64,000 nt of DNA, from contig JAFSKL010000010.1 in assembly GCA_017448985.1 (NCBI GenBank), forward strand, positions 20,250-84,249, written 5' to 3'. Origin of the DNA: Paludibacteraceae bacterium. GTDB lineage: Bacteria > Bacteroidota > Bacteroidia > Bacteroidales > Paludibacteraceae. Of this stretch, positions 10,982 to 17,587 are shown in pieces. How positions within the stretch are numbered: position 1 is the first letter of the stretch; every line of letters starts with the position of its first letter. The position numbers and the translations under genes are program-made. Below the pieces are notes generated by a model. That model made no database searches, was not told the DNA's origin, and was given only the letters and a program-made list of their open reading frames with translations.

Positions 10982-12793
10982 ATGAAGAATATACGGAATT
11001 TTTGTATCATTGCGCATATAGACCACGGCAAGAGTACGCTGGCGGACAGGATGTTAGAGTTGACGGGTACCGTCGATGTTCGCAGCATGGAAGCACAGGT
11101 GCTCGACGACATGGACCTGGAGAAAGAACGGGGCATCACGATAAAGAGCCATGCGATACAGATGAATTATAAGTATAGGGGTGACGGGTTACCGGTTACG
11201 GGTGACGGGATGTTCACTCTTAATCTCATCGATACTCCGGGGCATGTGGATTTCAGTTATGAAGTGAGCCGGAGTATAGCGGCTTGCGAGGGAGCGGTGT
11301 TAGTTGTAGATGCGACGCAAGGCGTTCAGGCGCAGACGATATCGAACCTGTACATGGCCATCGAGCACGACCTCGAGATCATTCCCGTGATCAACAAATG
11401 CGACATGGACAATGCGATGCCGGAGCGTGTGGAGGACGAGATAATAGACCTGTTGGGTTGCAAGCGCGAGGAGATACTGCGTTGTTCGGCGAAGACGGGC
11501 GAGGGCGTGACGGAGATATTAGATGCCATCGTGGAGCGTATCCCGGCACCGGTGGGCGACCCCGACGCACCGCTGCAATGCCTCGTCTTCGACTCTGTAT
11601 TCAACTCGTTCCGCGGTATCATAGCCTACTTCAAAGTGGTGAACGGGACGATGCACACGGGTGACCGCGTGCGGTTTGTGAACACGGGCAAGGAGTACGA
11701 CGCGGACGAGATAGGTATCCTCAAATTAGACATGAGCCCTCGCAAGGAGATAAGCGCCGGCAATGTGGGGTACATCATCTCGGGCATCAAGACCTCGACC
11801 GAGGTCAAAGTGGGCGACACGATCACGCATGTGGCGCGACCGTGCGAGGCGGCGATAGACGGTTTCGAAGAAGCCAAGCCGATGGTGTTCGCGGGCGTCT
11901 ATCCGATAGAGACGGAAGACTACGAGGACCTGCGGGCATCGTTAGAAAAGCTGCAGCTGAACGACGCGAGTCTGACGTTCCAGCCGGAGAGTTCGATGGC
12001 GTTGGGCTTCGGTTTCCGCTGCGGGTTCCTCGGGTTACTGCACATGGAGATAGTGCAGGAGCGTCTGGACCGCGAGTTCGACATGGACGTTATCACCACG
12101 GTGCCGAATGTGTCGTACAATGTCTATACCAAAGACGGCAACATGGTGGAGGTACACAACCCCGCGGGAATGCCGGACCTGACGGAGATAGACCGCATTG
12201 AGGAGCCGTACATCCGCGCGAGCGTCATCACCGTGGCCGATTACATAGGGCCGATCATGACGCTGTGTTTGGGCAAGCGCGGCGAACTGGTCAAGCAGGA
12301 GTACATCAGCGGTAACCGTATGGAGCTGCTGTTCGACATGCCGTTAGGCGAGATAGTGATCGATTTCTACGACAAGCTCAAGTCGATCAGCAAGGGCTAC
12401 GCGTCGTTCGACTGGCACATGAACGGCTTCCGTCCGTCCAACCTCGTCAAGCTGGACATCCTGCTGAACGGCGAGCAAGTGGACGCACTCTCTACCCTCA
12501 CCCATCGCGACAATGCTACGGACTTCGGCCGGCGCATGTGCGAGAAACTCAAAGAGTTGCTACCTCGCCAACAGTTCGACATAGCGATACAGGCGGCGAT
12601 AGGTGCGAAGATCATTGCGCGGGAGACCGTGAAGCAGGTGCGCAAGGATGTGTTGGCCAAGTGTTACGGCGGTGATGTGAGCCGTAAGCGCAAGCTGCTC
12701 GAGAAGCAGAAACGCGGCAAGAAGCGGATGAAACAAATAGGCAATGTGGAAGTGCCGCAAAAAGCCTTCCTCGCTGTTTTGAAACTGGATTAG
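10982..12793 (+). CDS. lepA: Translation elongation factor 4
   Basis: [33 protein letters not shown], and C-terminal [23 protein letters not shown]. In-frame heptamer array at 11179-11209. Confidence 0.95.
11179..11209. repeat. Heptamer array x4 inside lepA
   Basis: GGGTGAC GGGTTAC CGGTTAC GGGTGAC GGG. Encodes [10 protein letters not shown]. Confidence 0.85.
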
Positions 12794-12802
12794 TTTCAAA
12801 AC

Positions 12803-12830
12803 AATGAATAATGATTAATGAATAATGAAT
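12803..12830. repeat. AATGAAT-family heptamer array x4 (left flank of the four-helix-bundle gene)
   Basis: AATGAAT AATGATT AATGAAT AATGAAT. Confidence 0.9.
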
Positions 12831-12847
12831 ATCTCGCTGAATGTAAC

Positions 12848-13237
12848 ATGGAAGAAACTAAAATATACAATTTAGGCATATTAGAAGATAAAACATATTC
12901 GTTTGCGCTACGAATCATCAAAGCACATAAATATCTAACAGACAAGAATGAATATATTCTCTCAAAACAACTCCTTCGTTCAGGAACTTCCATTGGGGCA
13001 AACTGTCGAGAGGCCACATTCGCTCAAAGTAAGCAAGACTTTGTTAACAAATTAAGTATAGCTTTAAAAGAGACAAACGAAAGTATCTATTGGATAGAAC
13101 TATTGCATGATTCCGGATTTATTACCGATGATAGCTTTGATTCCATTCATGCTGATGGCACAGAAATATTAAAACTATTAATCGCTATCATTAAAACATC
13201 AAAAAGTAATATCCAAAAAATTAAAGATATTCATTAA
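12848..13237 (+). CDS. Four-helix-bundle protein (23S rRNA intervening-sequence protein family)
   Basis: SIGANCREATFAQSKQDFVNKLSIALKETNESIYWIELL is the family signature. Very AT-rich. Flanked by inverted heptamer arrays. The longer start at 12818 lies inside the repeat. Confidence 0.8.
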   Translation: MEETKIYNLGILEDKTYSFALRIIKAHKYLTDKNEYILSKQLLRSGTSIGANCREATFAQSKQDFVNKLSIALKETNESIYWIELLHDSGFITDDSFDSIHADGTEILKLLIAIIKTSKSNIQKIKDIH

Positions 13238-13266
13238 TCATTATTAATTATTAATTATTCATTAAT
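13229..13266. repeat. Inverted AATGAAT-family array x5 (right flank of the four-helix-bundle gene)
   Basis: ATTCATT AATCATT ATTAATT ATTAATT ATTCATT AAT. This is the reverse complement of the left-flank family. Confidence 0.9.
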
Positions 13267-14574
13267 ATGTTAGAACATTTGATTCCGGCGTGGATGCTAA
13301 TCCCGTTTGTAGTGATGCTGCTATGCATCGCAGTGCTTCCGCTGATTCCTCATGTGGGCGAGTGGTGGGAGCATAATGTACACAAGCTGTATGTTTCGCT
13401 GATCCTCGGCGTGCCCGTAGGTTTCTGGCTGTGCGCACACGGCATGAGTCACGAGCTGATTCACCAGATGATCTTCGACTATGTGCCTTTCATCCTGCTG
13501 CTGATGGCGCTGTTTGTAACGACCGGCGGTATCTGTATCCGAGGTGACTTGAAAGCGACACCGCAGACTAACACGATCATCTTAGCTATCGGCTGGGTGC
13601 TGGCTTCGTTCATGGGAACGACCGGTGCAGCGATGCTGCTCATCCGTCTGCTGTTGGCAACCATCTCGCAACGCAAGTACAAAGTGCACACGGTCCTTTT
13701 CTTCATCGCCATCGTGGCTAACTGCGGCGGTCTGCTGTCTCCGCTCGGCGATCCTCCTTTGTTCCTGCTGTTCCAGAAAGGTACGCCGTTCATGTGGTGG
13801 CTTCAGAACATGCTTCCCGAATGGGCGCTGACAGGAGCTCTGCTTCTCGGTATCTACTTTGTGATCGATGTCTATTTCTACAAGAAAGAGCCGGTGGAGA
13901 ACATCATGGCCGATGTGCGCGAGAGCACCAAGATGCAGGCGACGGGTCTGATCAATATCTTCTGGCTGCTGTGCGTGGTGGCGAGCACGATGTTCATCAA
14001 CTCGACTTATATCCCTGCGATGGGTGGCGAACATGCACCATGGTACCTCAAACTGCTGCGCGAGTGGGTCTTCATCGCCATCATCGCCGGTTCGTGGCTG
14101 ACGACGAAGAAGGAAGTGCGGGTGAAGAACAACTACAGCTGGACGCCTATCCTCGAAGTAGCATGTGTCTTCTTAGGAATTTTCGCCACGATGACTCCTG
14201 CTCTGATGTTCCTGCAGCAGAACCCGCTGCCCGTCACGGCTCCGTGGCAGTTCGTCTATTGTACGGGTGCCCTCTCGGCGTTCCTGGACAATGCGCCTAC
14301 GGCCATGGTCTTCCATGCTACGGCTACCACTATCCCGTTAGCTGAAGGCGTAGAAGCGGTGGCAGGTATCGCACCGGAGTTCATGAAGGCTATCTCGATG
14401 GGTGCCGTGTTCTTCGGAGCGCTCACCTATATCGGTAACGGACCTAACTTCATGGTCAAGTCCATCGCCGAGCAGGAAGGAATCGATATGCCGTCGTTCT
14501 TCGGCTATATGATTAAGTTCAGCTTGATCATTCTCCTGCCTGTTTATATCATCGTTCAAATAATATTTATTTGA
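13267..14574 (+). CDS. Ion transporter of the ArsB/NhaD (citrate transporter-like) permease superfamily
   Basis: 435 aa, polytopic. GGLLSPLGDPPLFL and FLDNAPTA motifs are typical of NhaD-type Na+/H+ antiporters. Confidence 0.7.
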   Translation: MLEHLIPAWMLIPFVVMLLCIAVLPLIPHVGEWWEHNVHKLYVSLILGVPVGFWLCAHGMSHELIHQMIFDYVPFILLLMALFVTTGGICIRGDLKATPQTNTIILAIGWVLASFMGTTGAAMLLIRLLLATISQRKYKVHTVLFFIAIVANCGGLLSPLGDPPLFLLFQKGTPFMWWLQNMLPEWALTGALLLGIYFVIDVYFYKKEPVENIMADVRESTKMQATGLINIFWLLCVVASTMFINSTYIPAMGGEHAPWYLKLLREWVFIAIIAGSWLTTKKEVRVKNNYSWTPILEVACVFLGIFATMTPALMFLQQNPLPVTAPWQFVYCTGALSAFLDNAPTAMVFHATATTIPLAEGVEAVAGIAPEFMKAISMGAVFFGALTYIGNGPNFMVKSIAEQEGIDMPSFFGYMIKFSLIILLPVYIIVQIIFI

Positions 14575-14578
14575 AAAA

Positions 14579-14606
14579 GGACAATGGAAAATGGATAATG
14601 TACAAT
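14579..14606. repeat. Heptamer array x4 (left arm)
   Basis: GGACAAT GGAAAAT GGATAAT GTACAAT. Confidence 0.9.
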
Positions 14607-14613
14607 TAATATT

Positions 14614-14641
14614 TCATTTTCAATTTTCAATTTTCAATTTG
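14614..14641. repeat. Heptamer array x4 in opposite orientation (right arm)
   Basis: TCATTTT CAATTTT CAATTTT CAATTTG. Confidence 0.9.
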
Positions 14642-14642
14642 T

Positions 14643-15293
14643 ATGAGTTTCATAGATAACATCATCACGTGGTACTCGGCGCATATGAGCTATGCGTCGA
14701 TTACTGCTTTGATGGCTGTGGAAAGTTCGTTCATTCCTTTCCCGAGCGAAGTGGTGATTCCTCCTGCAGCGTTCGTAGCGGGTCAGCCGGAGAGCGTGCT
14801 GTGCACAACGGGCAACTACCCTATTGATGTGCTGCTGATCGTGCTCTTCGGCACGCTTGGTGCGATAATAGGCGCCGTGATCAACTACGGCCTGAGTGTA
14901 TGGCTCGGACGAATCATCATCTATAAGTTCGCGGATTCACGCCTTGGGCACCTGTGCCTGCTCTCGAGCGAGAAGATAGAGAAAGCGGAGGCGTACTTCC
15001 GTGAGAAAGGCAATGTATCGACCTTCATCGGACGATTCATCCCGGGAATCCGGCAGCTCATATCTATCCCTGCGGGCCTGAGCCGTATGAACTTCGGCGC
15101 GTTCCTCTGGTGGACCTTCCTCGGAGCGTTCATCTGGAATTGCATCCTGGCGGCGCTGGGCTACTTAGCTGCCGGACAAATGGACCTGATAAAAGAATAT
15201 AGCCACGAACTATCCGTAGCTATACTCGTCATTCTCGGCTTGGCAATCGTGTTCTTCGTTGTCAAGCGCTTGCTAAAAGCTAAAAAAGATTAG
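14643..15293 (+). CDS. DedA family membrane protein
   Basis: ESSFIPFPSEVVIPPA and FIGRFIPGIRQLISIPAG DedA/SNARE-associated motifs. Confidence 0.8.
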   Translation: MSFIDNIITWYSAHMSYASITALMAVESSFIPFPSEVVIPPAAFVAGQPESVLCTTGNYPIDVLLIVLFGTLGAIIGAVINYGLSVWLGRIIIYKFADSRLGHLCLLSSEKIEKAEAYFREKGNVSTFIGRFIPGIRQLISIPAGLSRMNFGAFLWWTFLGAFIWNCILAALGYLAAGQMDLIKEYSHELSVAILVILGLAIVFFVVKRLLKAKKD

Positions 15294-16240
15294 GCTTTGA
15301 GCCAGGCGATGATTGCTTTGCGTTTGTCGATCACTTCGGCGAGGAGGCATCCAGCCACCCAACCGAGCAGGAAGAGCAACGCTACACACTGACGACGACC
15401 GTTCACGGGTTTGGGGTCTGCCACAAAGTGGTTCTCCAGCACTACGGGAGCGGTCGCTAATTGTAAGCGGTAGTCGCCTTGCTGCAGGTGTTGCTGCTGC
15501 TTGTATATCTCCTCGAGGAAGAGATGGATTCGACGGTCACCGTAGAAATTAACGCCGTTCCCGCTGTAAGCAGCAGGCTGAACGGGCACTGTTCCTGCAA
15601 AATAGTACGCGCTGGTGAGGCTGTCGAGCTTGAGCGCCTGCGCATGGTTGAAAGCGACTTCGGCCTCCAGGTTGCGGCGATAGGTGCCGAACGACTGCTG
15701 CAATGCCTCGTTGGCATTGAGGAAATCGAGCAAGGCCTGCTCCACCTCCGGCAGTTTTTTCAAGTCACGCGACTTGATGCGGAACTGCAGGCACAGACGG
15801 TCCTGCATCTGTACATTGAGCGTGTCCTTGGGCGAGGACTTGCGCTTGAAATCGACAAAGTCCGCCACGCCGTCATGGCGACAGTCCACTACGCGGAAAG
15901 TCTGAAAAGCCTGTACCTGATGCTCCTTGATGAACGGCAGTATAGCGGCATCGTCAGGTATCGAACGACTTGAACGGAGCGGCGCAAAAGCCTGCTCGAA
16001 CTGCGGCAGCGAAGCACCGTTGATGAAAGCCACCGCGTTCATCTTGAAGGTAATGTTCGCTTCACGCGTATGGTAGAGAGCCACTGCCACCGCCAAGAAA
16101 ACAAGGGCCAACACCAGCCACCAGTAGCGCCACGAGAGGCGTAACATATGCGCCAACAGGCGCCATAAAGCGGCACAGCCGCGACCTATAGCACGGCCAC
16201 ACACCACGCAAAGGTCCCAAAAATTCATTTCTCGTTCCAT
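15290..16240 (-). CDS. Hypothetical membrane protein (N- and C-terminal TM helices)
   Basis: 316-aa ORF immediately downstream of ftsZ. Topology is TM helix, large soluble region, TM helix. No domain recognised. Its stop overlaps the dedA stop convergently. Confidence 0.55.
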   Translation of the reverse strand: MEREMNFWDLCVVCGRAIGRGCAALWRLLAHMLRLSWRYWWLVLALVFLAVAVALYHTREANITFKMNAVAFINGASLPQFEQAFAPLRSSRSIPDDAAILPFIKEHQVQAFQTFRVVDCRHDGVADFVDFKRKSSPKDTLNVQMQDRLCLQFRIKSRDLKKLPEVEQALLDFLNANEALQQSFGTYRRNLEAEVAFNHAQALKLDSLTSAYYFAGTVPVQPAAYSGNGVNFYGDRRIHLFLEEIYKQQQHLQQGDYRLQLATAPVVLENHFVADPKPVNGRRQCVALLFLLGWVAGCLLAEVIDKRKAIIAWLKA

Positions 16241-16243
16241 TTT

Positions 16244-16271
16244 AATGAATAATTAATAATGAATAATGAAT
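16244..16271. repeat. AATGAAT-family array x4
   Basis: AATGAAT AATTAAT AATGAAT AATGAAT. Nearly identical to 12803-12830, including the following ATCT. Confidence 0.9.
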
Positions 16272-16307
16272 ATCTTTTTATGTGAATATGCTTTCGTCTC
16301 ACGAGAT

Positions 16308-16335
16308 AATCATTAATCATTAACCATTGATAATT
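16308..16335. repeat. Inverted AATGAAT-family array x4, overlapping the ftsZ stop
   Basis: AATCATT AATCATT AACCATT GATAATT. Confidence 0.85.
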
Positions 16336-17587
16336 ACTTTCTTCTAATCCATCCGAACGGTCGGTGAGCAGGTTGCTCCGGCTGTTCCTCCGCTTTGGGT
16401 TCGTCCTCGACGGTAATGACCACCTCTTCGGCAGAGGTCGATTCGGGCCGTTCCTTCGTCTGACGAGGCAGCGTGTCACCCCCTTCGGCAAACAGCGTCT
16501 CGCTCAGGTCGATCAGCTGTGCCTTCTCGTCCTCTAAGGGTTTGGGCACCTGCGGCGGGTAGTTGGCATCGATAGCCTCGGCTATCGTTTTCTTGCCTTC
16601 CACCTCTTCCTCGGATGGCAGCCCGTCGACCTTGTATCCCGTGGCAATGACCGTGACGCGCACTTCCTCGCCCAGCGTCTCGTCGATGGAAGCGCCCCAC
16701 TGCACTTCGATGTCCTCGCCCACTTCCTGGACGAAATCGTTGATCTGGTCGATCTCCTCCATGACGATGGCGTGCTCGGTGGAGCAGTAGAACTGCAGCA
16801 GGATTCGTTCGGCGCCGTGCACATCGTTGGTGTTGACCAGCGGCGAGTTGAGGGCATCGTTGATGGCATTGGTGATACGCCGTTCGCCGGAAGCCCGACC
16901 GATGTTCATGATGGCTACTCCACCCTTGCGGAGTGTGTTGCGCACATCGGCAAAGTCCGTATTGATGTACCCGGGCACCGTGATGATCTCCGCAATCGCT
17001 CTGGCTGCGTTGGCCACCACATCGTCCGACTTGCTGAACGCATTGAGCAGGTTGAGTTCCGGGTAGATCTGTTTGAGTTTCTCATTATTAATAATGAGAA
17101 GCGCGTCCACATGCTTGGCCAGACGAGCCACGCCTGTCATTGCTTTCTCTATCTTCTTCTTGCCCTCGAACGCAAACGGGATCGTGACGATACCAACGGT
17201 CAGTATGCCCATTTCCTGCGCCACCTCCGCCACGACGGCCGAAGCACCGGTACCCGTACCGCCACCCATTCCGGCGGTGATGAACAGCATCTGCGTGCCA
17301 TCATTGAGCGCCTCGCGTATATGCTCGCGGCTCTCCTCGGCGTACTGACGCGCGGTCTCGGGATCGCCGCCGGCACCCAGACCCGGACCCAATTGCAGCT
17401 TACTCGGTACCGACGATTTGATGAGCACCTGGCGATCGGTGTTGCAAACGAGGAAGGTCACATCTTTCAGACCCTGACGGTGCATGTAGTTGACCGCATT
17501 GCAGCCGCCTCCACCTACGCCGATCACTTTGATGATACTATCCTCTGTCAAGCCTTCCAAAGGCAGTGTAATTAAATTATCTTCCAT
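16334..17587 (-). CDS. ftsZ: Cell division protein FtsZ
   Basis: GVGGGGCNAVN and GMGGGTGTGA tubulin signature motifs. Confidence 0.97.
   Translation of the reverse strand: MEDNLITLPLEGLTEDSIIKVIGVGGGGCNAVNYMHRQGLKDVTFLVCNTDRQVLIKSSVPSKLQLGPGLGAGGDPETARQYAEESREHIREALNDGTQMLFITAGMGGGTGTGASAVVAEVAQEMGILTVGIVTIPFAFEGKKKIEKAMTGVARLAKHVDALLIINNEKLKQIYPELNLLNAFSKSDDVVANAARAIAEIITVPGYINTDFADVRNTLRKGGVAIMNIGRASGERRITNAINDALNSPLVNTNDVHGAERILLQFYCSTEHAIVMEEIDQINDFVQEVGEDIEVQWGASIDETLGEEVRVTVIATGYKVDGLPSEEEVEGKKTIAEAIDANYPPQVPKPLEDEKAQLIDLSETLFAEGGDTLPRQTKERPESTSAEEVVITVEDEPKAEEQPEQPAHRPFGWIRRK

Follow-up and report, generated by a model that had tools for sequence, protein, structure and literature searches.

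What occupies the junction between ftsZ and the gene that follows it in a rumen bacterium of the Paludibacteraceae: an element in its own right, the vacated seat of a larger one, a patch of overgrown simple sequence, or a regulatory structure belonging to the operon? The question is raised by a stretch of 64,000 nucleotides (nt), hereafter the window (GenBank assembly GCA_017448985.1, contig JAFSKL010000010.1, positions 20,250 to 84,249 of the forward strand), which is part of a 2.36-Mb draft genome with 50% G+C. An earlier note, made from the sequence letters only, had taken the ftsZ spacer for the 'empty' counterpart of a gene-bearing cassette nearby, being either a vacant or excised site or the ancestral state into which a gene can be captured. 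The answer that we favour, and consider probable, is that the spacer holds one copy, without a gene, of a palindromic intergenic repeat that is dispersed in the genome and has tandem heptamers for arms, and which is reminiscent of the doublets of repetitive extragenic palindromes that form hairpins (REPINs) and of miniature inverted-repeat transposable elements (MITEs). Modular and of constant polarity, the repeat comes and goes at operon junctions, or gives way there to other sequence, over the time in which strains diverge. In what follows the source genome is G000, other G-numbers are congener genomes (41 were compared), L-numbers are contigs or loci of strains and relatives, and C-numbers are contigs within a genome.

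The ftsZ spacer and its loaded sister

The ftsZ gene (417 aa, with matches to PF00091 and PF12327) lies on the minus strand at 16334-17587, and downstream of it on the same strand is a 316-aa open reading frame (ORF), orf316, the ATG of which (16238-16240) is 3 nt from the element. The element is 92 nt of AT-rich sequence with two inverted arms and no ORF inside. Read on the plus strand, arm 1 is AATGAAT AATTAAT AATGAAT AATGAAT (16244-16271), directly followed by ATCT at 16272-16275, and arm 2 is AATCATT AATCATT AACCATT GATAATT (16308-16335); the 36-nt core or loop between them (16272-16307) reads ATCTCGTGAGACGAAAGCATATTCACATAAAAAGAT on the minus strand. The inverted arrays around a short loop are thus just as first described. 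On the transcribed strand arm 1 becomes ATTCATT ATTCATT ATTAATT ATTCATT (termed type A) and is the promoter-distal arm, while arm 2 reads TTATC and then AATGGTT AATGATT AATGATT, its last plus-strand unit, GATAATT, being degenerate and overlapping the ftsZ stop codon at 16334-16336. In the transcript the first full arm unit comes 5 nt after this TAA. The element therefore fills the stop-to-start spacer, which is 93 nt, or 105 nt if orf316 truly starts at a second ATG, in frame and 12 nt beyond the first. Public gene calls choose the latter (312 aa), the N-terminus MEREMNFW is kept in congeners, and the protein has no Pfam or NCBIfam match; shifting of gene-start calls is one of the further consequences of heptamer arrays. 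That such sequence is not a mere by-product of composition is apparent from the 14-mer AATGAATAATGAAT: when up to 2 mismatches are allowed, the window has 11 occurrences of it where 0.55 would be expected, and none of 100 shuffles reached 11.

Three kb away, between lepA and a CitMHS_2 gene, is the sister cassette, which is loaded. Its left arm (12803-12830, plus strand) is AATGAAT AATGATT AATGAAT AATGAAT, termed type B; next come ATCTCGCTGAATGTAAC and the ATG of the cargo, a 129-aa four-helix-bundle protein, IVP-A, encoded at 12848-13237 on the plus strand (PF05635, 23S_rRNA_IVP; TIGR02436). The right arm, ATTCATT AATCATT ATTAATT ATTAATT ATTCATT (13229-13263, plus strand), has AAAGAT before it and AAT-ATG of the CitMHS_2 gene after it. 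The claimed near-identity of the two left flanks amounts to 30 of 32 positions (16244-16275 against 12803-12834). In the direction of transcription, which is plus for the cassette and minus for the ftsZ spacer, both have the same frame: (AATGAWT)n-ATCTCG...AAAGAT-(ATTCATT-type)n-AAN-ATG of the next gene. The comparison, down to the inner junctions ATCTCG and AAAGAT, supports viewing the ftsZ spacer as the frame of the PF05635 cassette with no gene in it. As to the cassette itself, the IVP-A stop codon is inside the right arm, and that arm contains five units in G000 against four in L076-L078, with 473 and 466 nt respectively from lepA to CitMHS.

A real but modest hairpin

The transcript running from ftsZ into orf316 could form an AU-rich, imperfect hairpin of ~28 bp, with its foot 5 nt after the ftsZ stop codon and 3 nt before the orf316 AUG. 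The minimum free energy calculated for the spacer as RNA is -16.6 kcal/mol for the transcribed minus strand (z -1.96, with 4 of 200 shuffles folding as well) and -17.1 kcal/mol for the plus strand (z -2.43, 3 of 200), and arm to arm the 92 nt give a z of -2.6. As modelled, then, the hairpin is real but modest; the spacer does fold as one long imperfect hairpin, as had been proposed, and its stem is more stable than shuffled AT-rich sequence, if not by much. The same is true of all 16 inverted pairs of the genome, described below, each of which gives a single long hairpin with imperfections; their z values range from -1.2 to -4.1, the median being about -2.8.

Could such a hairpin at the end of a dcw operon be a dedicated regulatory structure, a terminator, attenuator or promoter for ftsZ or orf316? 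Its exact fit into the gap from the ftsZ stop to the orf316 start, and its ability to fold, are what one would look for. However, the AU-rich stem is followed in the transcript by AAAAUGG, with no U-tract, and is not G+C-rich, contrary to what characterizes intrinsic terminators; a promoter and terminator scan brought up no promoter-like or terminator-like site in the spacer, and an Rfam scan of 12000-17000 gave no match. Nor is the structure conserved, conspecific strains and all congeners examined doing without it, and dozens of unrelated junctions have identical arms, in one orientation or the other. We consider a dedicated role of this sort very improbable.

An element at this position might nonetheless be felt by the genes on either side. 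A ribosome terminating at the end of ftsZ would be expected to open the hairpin, and in this way translation of orf316 could be coupled to ftsZ termination. Alternatively RNase III might cut the hairpin, as it does the 23S rRNA intervening sequences and Correia elements considered at the end.

A family of heptamer-armed palindromes

A phased-heptamer scan of the whole genome for AATGAAT/ATTCATT arrays provided the census from which the family emerges. It counts 60 such arrays, spread over ~48 sites and with few exceptions exactly four units long. At 16 of these sites two arrays form an inverted pair around a core of 18-60 nt, so that the ftsZ spacer has 15 partners of the kind whose absence would have spoken against the earlier note, and besides there are ~30 solo arms. 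Paired arms have three to four tandem AATGAWT units each, with ATATCT at the inner junction. In their common orientation most pairs fit the consensus (AATGATT)3-4 ATCTCG[T/C]..., a variable stretch, an A-run, (G)AT and ATTCATT ATTCATT ATTAATT ATTCATT, and the ftsZ core, like that of most other paired copies, starts with ATCTCG(Y) and closes with an A-run and (G)AT. The modular character is evident from an extra module, GTGCCCTTGTGGCTAAGAAT, inserted in four copies in this genome, and from cores that in some copies (C5, C8) are inverted relative to the arms. Nearly all sites of the family are intergenic and 0-9 nt from the flanking stop or start codons. Beyond that they show no preference for context: 13 of 16 paired copies are between co-directional genes, the genome baseline being 82%, paired elements occur in either orientation relative to transcription without bias, and by hand count solo arms are positioned eight toward starts and eight toward stops.

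It might be supposed that these arrays simply grew where they are, by polymerase slippage of the quasi-palindromic heptamer AATSATT, with their inversion being incidental. The heptamer is after all almost identical to its reverse complement, period-7 arrays number 378 in the genome and belong to many families, strains differ by single units and by one 13-nt tandem duplication, and one AATGAAT unit is already present in a short strain allele of the ftsZ spacer. Against such growth in place is the recurrence of exact 28-mers with the same internal order of variants at unlinked sites, 16 copies of type B (ATTCATT ATTCATT AATCATT ATTCATT) and seven of type A (ATTCATT ATTCATT ATTAATT ATTCATT), the ftsZ site included. 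Slippage does not account for arms that nearly always have four units, for the non-repeat core head ATCTCG and extra modules common to sites and species, or for a single polarity, the G-type arm being 5' on both strands with ATCT pointing inward in 16 of 16 pairs and reversed in none. The short allele, moreover, is without the 36-nt core, and in the other heptamer families adjacent arrays of the same family are direct in 41 cases and inverted in five, two of the five enclosing PF05635 genes. Local growth is distinctly unlikely. Since neighbouring arrays of the other families are mostly direct, short gene-less palindromes are a speciality of the ATTCATT family in this genome.

Two further features of the arrays may be recorded. 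One is a higher-order repeat with a 38-nt period, consisting of a 28-nt arm plus ATCTCTTTTT, which is present head to tail two to three times (G000 C39:13920-14023, C36:37889-37947, C37:8146-8204). The other is that contigs end in or beside ATTCATT arrays (C15:7-55, C32:101-128, C21:262943-262970, C40:58270-58297), with the end of C21 matching the start of C32, and that of C40 matching the flank at C36:37889, where the same flanking sequence is present in reverse complement. Because four contigs end there, the arrays probably break assemblies.

Turnover between strains and among species

The behaviour of the element at its site is revealed by conspecific contigs with flanking genes 98.2-100% identical to the window. 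Three alleles alternate between ftsZ and orf316, so comparison of the spacer among strains, which had been suggested as a check, was rewarding. The palindrome allele is 93 nt long with 1-2 single nucleotide polymorphisms (SNPs) between carriers (L057-62, L064, L079-81), one of which, AATGGTT/AATGATT, is in an arm 2 unit. The short allele, TAA TTATCAATGAATAAT ATG, is 15 nt and has a single AATGAAT unit (L063/L078, L076, L077, L082); it is found on two flank backgrounds. The third is an unrelated, direct AATCGTA array of 64 nt (L044). Palindrome and short alleles have TTATCAATG in common on the 5' side and differ on the 3' side by replacement, with no clean indel, the 36-nt core not being in the short allele. 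Polarizing these two by a tree of their flanks was attempted and dropped, as the alleles are intermixed there, which is an indication of recombination.

The ftsZ site is not exceptional. The palindrome is strain-polymorphic at all four sites examined, the others being downstream and upstream of ribH and between the genes for L27 and serS. At these it alternates with a 29-nt AAATGGT-type array or with plain spacer, and the strains also differ by one-unit changes in copy number and by the single 13-nt tandem duplication. In L089-L091 ribH is between two identical, direct 29-nt arrays (ATGGTACATCGTAAATGACCAAATGGTAA), where G000 has two ATTCATT palindromes (C38:70326-70401 and 70880-70973). The block swapped in the spacer downstream of ribH includes the first codons of the next gene (MKVYKF versus MARVYKF). 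Upstream of the variable serS spacer a G+C-rich stem-loop, GGGGAAACAACCACCATCTCC...GGTGGGAGATT, follows rpmA/L27 (G000 C8:55706-55770) and is kept in all strains; it is probably an operon terminator or processing site. Another fast-changing junction is the spacer from CitMHS to a VTT-domain gene (14575-14642 in the window), which ranges from 61 to 194 nt among contigs with identical FtsZ (L057-L064, L066-L075), and in L070, which has an identical LepA, the calls for these two genes abut.

Was the palindrome at ftsZ ancestral, to be lost from some strains, or did it arrive there? In the congener G004, with an FtsZ 92% identical, the ftsZ-orf316 spacer is 3 nt; in G003 it is a single 33-nt array, in G011 a TGTTTAA array, and in six others a plain short sequence. 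As the palindrome is lacking from the orthologous spacer in all nine of these congeners and in 11 further metagenome relatives, the element at ftsZ is derived and not ancestral, so that the proposal of an ancestral state awaiting capture of a gene is not borne out. Judged from these sequence comparisons, it would seem to be a recent acquisition at this site.

Within the genus, only a few species have the family in abundance. A 28-mer pattern search allowing up to 2 mismatches gives 63 matches in G000, and 19, 16 and 6 in three congeners (G035, G010 and G040, respectively), with none in 33 of the 41. The junction motifs and the GTGCCCTTGTGGCTAAGAAT (GTGCCC...) module recur in copies from other species. 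Further afield, exact matches to the pattern are found in more than 117 stretches from Cyanobacteria (many from Okeania), Bacteroidota, Ignavibacteriota, Clostridia and others, and these are mostly solo arrays, though gene-less inverted pairs are present in one Okeania and one Clostridia metagenome-assembled genome. Another Okeania has a PF05635 gene between inverted AATAATT arrays.

Empty and loaded states of one site

If gene-less and loaded frames are so alike, which came from which? The thought that a PF05635 gene was once between the ftsZ arms and has been lost, in the manner of a MITE derived by deletion from an autonomous element, is a natural one, and the arm family and inner junctions that match those of the loaded cassette are in keeping with it. 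So is what is found at the lepA-CitMHS junction. There the IVP-A cassette is present in every contig read that has an identical LepA, and in L076-L078 as well. The exception is L083, in which lepA and CitMHS are 98.3% and 97.7% identical in nucleotides to the window and yet the cargo is different, a 119-aa four-helix-bundle protein (IVP-B, 57% identical) between AATGGAA and TTTTCAA arrays. The congener G003 has the same arm family at this junction as L083, with a homologous left junction (53 of 59 positions, including the end of lepA), and within it is a gene-less loop of ~58 nt. This empty and loaded pair with homologous arms supports, in principle, the idea that the two forms can be alternative states of one site; nevertheless the G003 loop has no similarity to the interior of IVP-B, a point against a vacated cassette.

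Loaded units have evidently been on the move. Orthologues of IVP-A with 78-81% identity, with AATGAAT/ATTCATT arrays on both sides, are on other contigs in G005 and G010, the two flanking arrays being in direct orientation in the latter. Since in G005 the orthologue is elsewhere and the lepA-CitMHS spacer is a plain, empty 18 nt, it was a unit of gene plus arms that moved, which speaks for the dispersed repeat that we favour. The same G005 locus (L244, C62 ~13419-13960) has an AATGAAT arm upstream of the gene and, downstream, a complete gene-less palindrome (arm, ATTTTTTCAATGCGAGCGCTTTGCGAGAT, arm), and therefore loaded and empty units in tandem. The direct proximity of the two is a further point for a vacated cassette at ftsZ.

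Several observations nevertheless make a vacated cassette at ftsZ unlikely. No conspecific contig read has a cargo-bearing allele there; with the other alleles also lacking cargo, and gene-less pairs outnumbering loaded copies with AATGAAT-type arms by 16 to 1 in the genome, the 'vacant or excised site' of the earlier note is left unsupported. PF05635 genes number only three in the genome and are 44-48% identical among themselves, so there is no sign of recent gene copies; apart from IVP-A, one on C38 has inverted AAAATTA/TAATTTT arrays on both sides and one on C6 has AATCTTA units at its 3' side only. Among congeners arms and gene part company, G035 having 19 arm matches without an IVP-A orthologue and G005 having the orthologue with only two. 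The possibility that the cores are remnants of IVP genes was pursued and set aside, their relationship being weak: summed over 14 cores, the similarity to IVP loci was 296, barely above the 279.6 +/- 8 for shuffles, the highest of which reached 300. Two cores do stand out individually, and that of ftsZ, with 21 of 25 aligned positions matching the 3' end of one congener's IVP locus, exceeds all 40 shuffles, to the benefit of the vacated-cassette explanation. As to the cargo itself, in-frame stops are present in congener PF05635 genes (L245, which is the G010 IVP-A orthologue at C213:846-1223, and L251, L256, L260, L261, L263 and L266), and this reading of the sequences suggests that cargo decays frequently.

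What might spread the palindromes?

How would a gene-less palindrome come to replace a spacer? Copy-and-paste or recombination may have replaced the whole spacer at ftsZ by copying from another junction. Microhomology of the heptamers possibly seeds the replacement, the short allele already having one unit, and the element would be tolerated for being AT-rich and offering stop and start codons.

An agent has been sought with several outcomes that weigh against a mobile repeat of this kind. No transposase is linked to the family, and no parent element with the same ends and encoding one was found; there is no reverse transcriptase in the genome. REP-associated tyrosine transposases (RAYTs) were an obvious candidate and were rejected, the RAYT-like ORFs having no flanking arrays and, across the 41 congeners, no correlation with arm counts. 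Other considerations on the same side concern the sequences themselves. The cores vary widely although the arms are near-identical, which is not what simple, recent transposition of whole units predicts. No target-site duplication can be read from the palindrome and short alleles as they differ by replacement, and with alleles mixed in within-species trees, polarity depends on outgroups only. The hairpin at ftsZ is only marginally better than shuffles, the arms fall short of exact complementarity by one mismatch in each unit, either U.U or A.A, and comparison of copies in the genome and of strain alleles showed no compensatory changes between arms. Even with these counted, the dispersed gene-less repeat is the reading that we retain.

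The RAYT-like ORFs deserve a brief description on their own account. There are three paralogues in G000 (C12:8053-9120, C9:867-1700, C34:15531-16424), of 330-360 aa, with an HUH/Y1 (IS200/RAYT-like) N-terminal part that includes MPDHVHILL and NYILDNPRR and a C-terminal half that has no assignment, each scoring at or just under the Pfam cut-off; that on C12 scores 21.6-23 bits against PF01797, for which the cut-off is 23. In the genus the family is patchy, being in 21 of 41 genomes with up to eight matches each, irrespective of arm counts. A cognate IVP driving its own arm family was similarly considered and discarded. There is no clean correlation between IVP-A and arms because of the G005 and G035 counts already given; G010 has an orthologue with 16 arm matches, and G040, with six, has none.

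Still, the sole loaded relative with AATGAAT-type arms encodes the 129-aa PF05635 protein, and for those inclined to speculate, the gene-less hairpins might be the non-autonomous form of a transposase-less cassette system run by four-helix-bundle proteins of the intervening sequence (IVS) type, relatives of Avd, the accessory protein of diversity-generating retroelements (DGRs). We regard this as doubtful, though its implications are attractive. Were it so, IVS-type proteins would act on heptamer-array hairpins in DNA or RNA, operon junctions would acquire empty and gene-bearing elements by copying, exchange them and lose them, and the turnover between strains and the empty and loaded pair at lepA-CitMHS would be snapshots of the process.

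Irrespective of that, two unexplained features of genomes meet here, the excess of 7-base tandem repeats at gene junctions and the four-helix-bundle family of 23S rRNA intervening sequences. The ftsZ spacer shows that the hairpin frame mostly exists without a gene, and that it turns over between strains with flanking genes 98-100% identical, while at lepA-CitMHS a single operon junction has alternative frames across strains, with different genes or none. The spread of the elements and their effect on polycistronic mRNAs are now testable with population data and reporter assays.

Comparison with known systems

Literature searches on the heptamer string, and on IVS proteins together with repeats, gave nothing specific. 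The REPINs and bacterial interspersed mosaic elements (BIMEs) of Proteobacteria resemble the present family in being extragenic, ~70-120 nt long, with inverted arms around a short spacer and many solo arms, and in being mosaics of conserved modules in either orientation, located in operon spacers, transcribed with the flanking genes, and of lineage-specific abundance. They differ in that their arms are a 20-40 nt REP with a GTAG/CGTC head and not tandem heptamers; in contrast to the REPIN-RAYT partnership no cognate RAYT was found flanked by, or co-occurring with, the repeats here, and it is peculiar to the present family that a sister copy carries a four-helix-bundle gene.

MITEs such as the Correia elements of Neisseria are small, AT-rich and non-coding, have terminal inverted repeats, and are intergenic and co-transcribed with their neighbours. 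The Correia hairpin can be cleaved by RNase III, and the elements are polymorphic for presence or absence between strains. Small size, AT-richness, lack of coding capacity, terminal inverted repeats and strain polymorphism are all features of the ftsZ-type palindrome, the differences being that its termini are tandem repeats, and that it has no recognisable target-site duplication and no transposase-encoding parent.

Heptanucleotide repeats are scattered across phyla, including Cyanobacteria and Bacteroidetes (PMC4679880). Those described as LSSR (Mrazek et al. 2007) and the TAACTGA repeats (MacGregor 2015, PMC4679880) have 7-nt units in 2-6 or more copies and are intergenic, a few nt from start codons, as are the arrays considered here, whose copy number varies between strains. 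However, of 170 TAACTGA sets a single one is inverted, almost all being direct and pointing forward relative to the start codon (PMC4679880), unlike the 16 inverted pairs with a shared core and mixed orientation to genes in the present genome. The element is best filed as an intergenic palindromic repeat of the REPIN, BIME or MITE sort, with tandem-heptamer arms as its own variation, the heptamer arrays themselves being all that is described in the literature searched (PMC4679880).

The 23S rRNA intervening sequences of Leptospira and Coxiella (S23p/PF05635) are set in an rRNA helix and not between protein-coding genes, and their stems are not heptamer arrays. Yet they too have a stem made from flanking inverted repeats (here a predicted one), a loop that may hold a PF05635 gene, as that of the sister cassette does at 12848-13237, and gene-less and gene-bearing versions with a patchy distribution. 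In these respects the ftsZ element is akin to the gene-less 23S rRNA intervening sequences.

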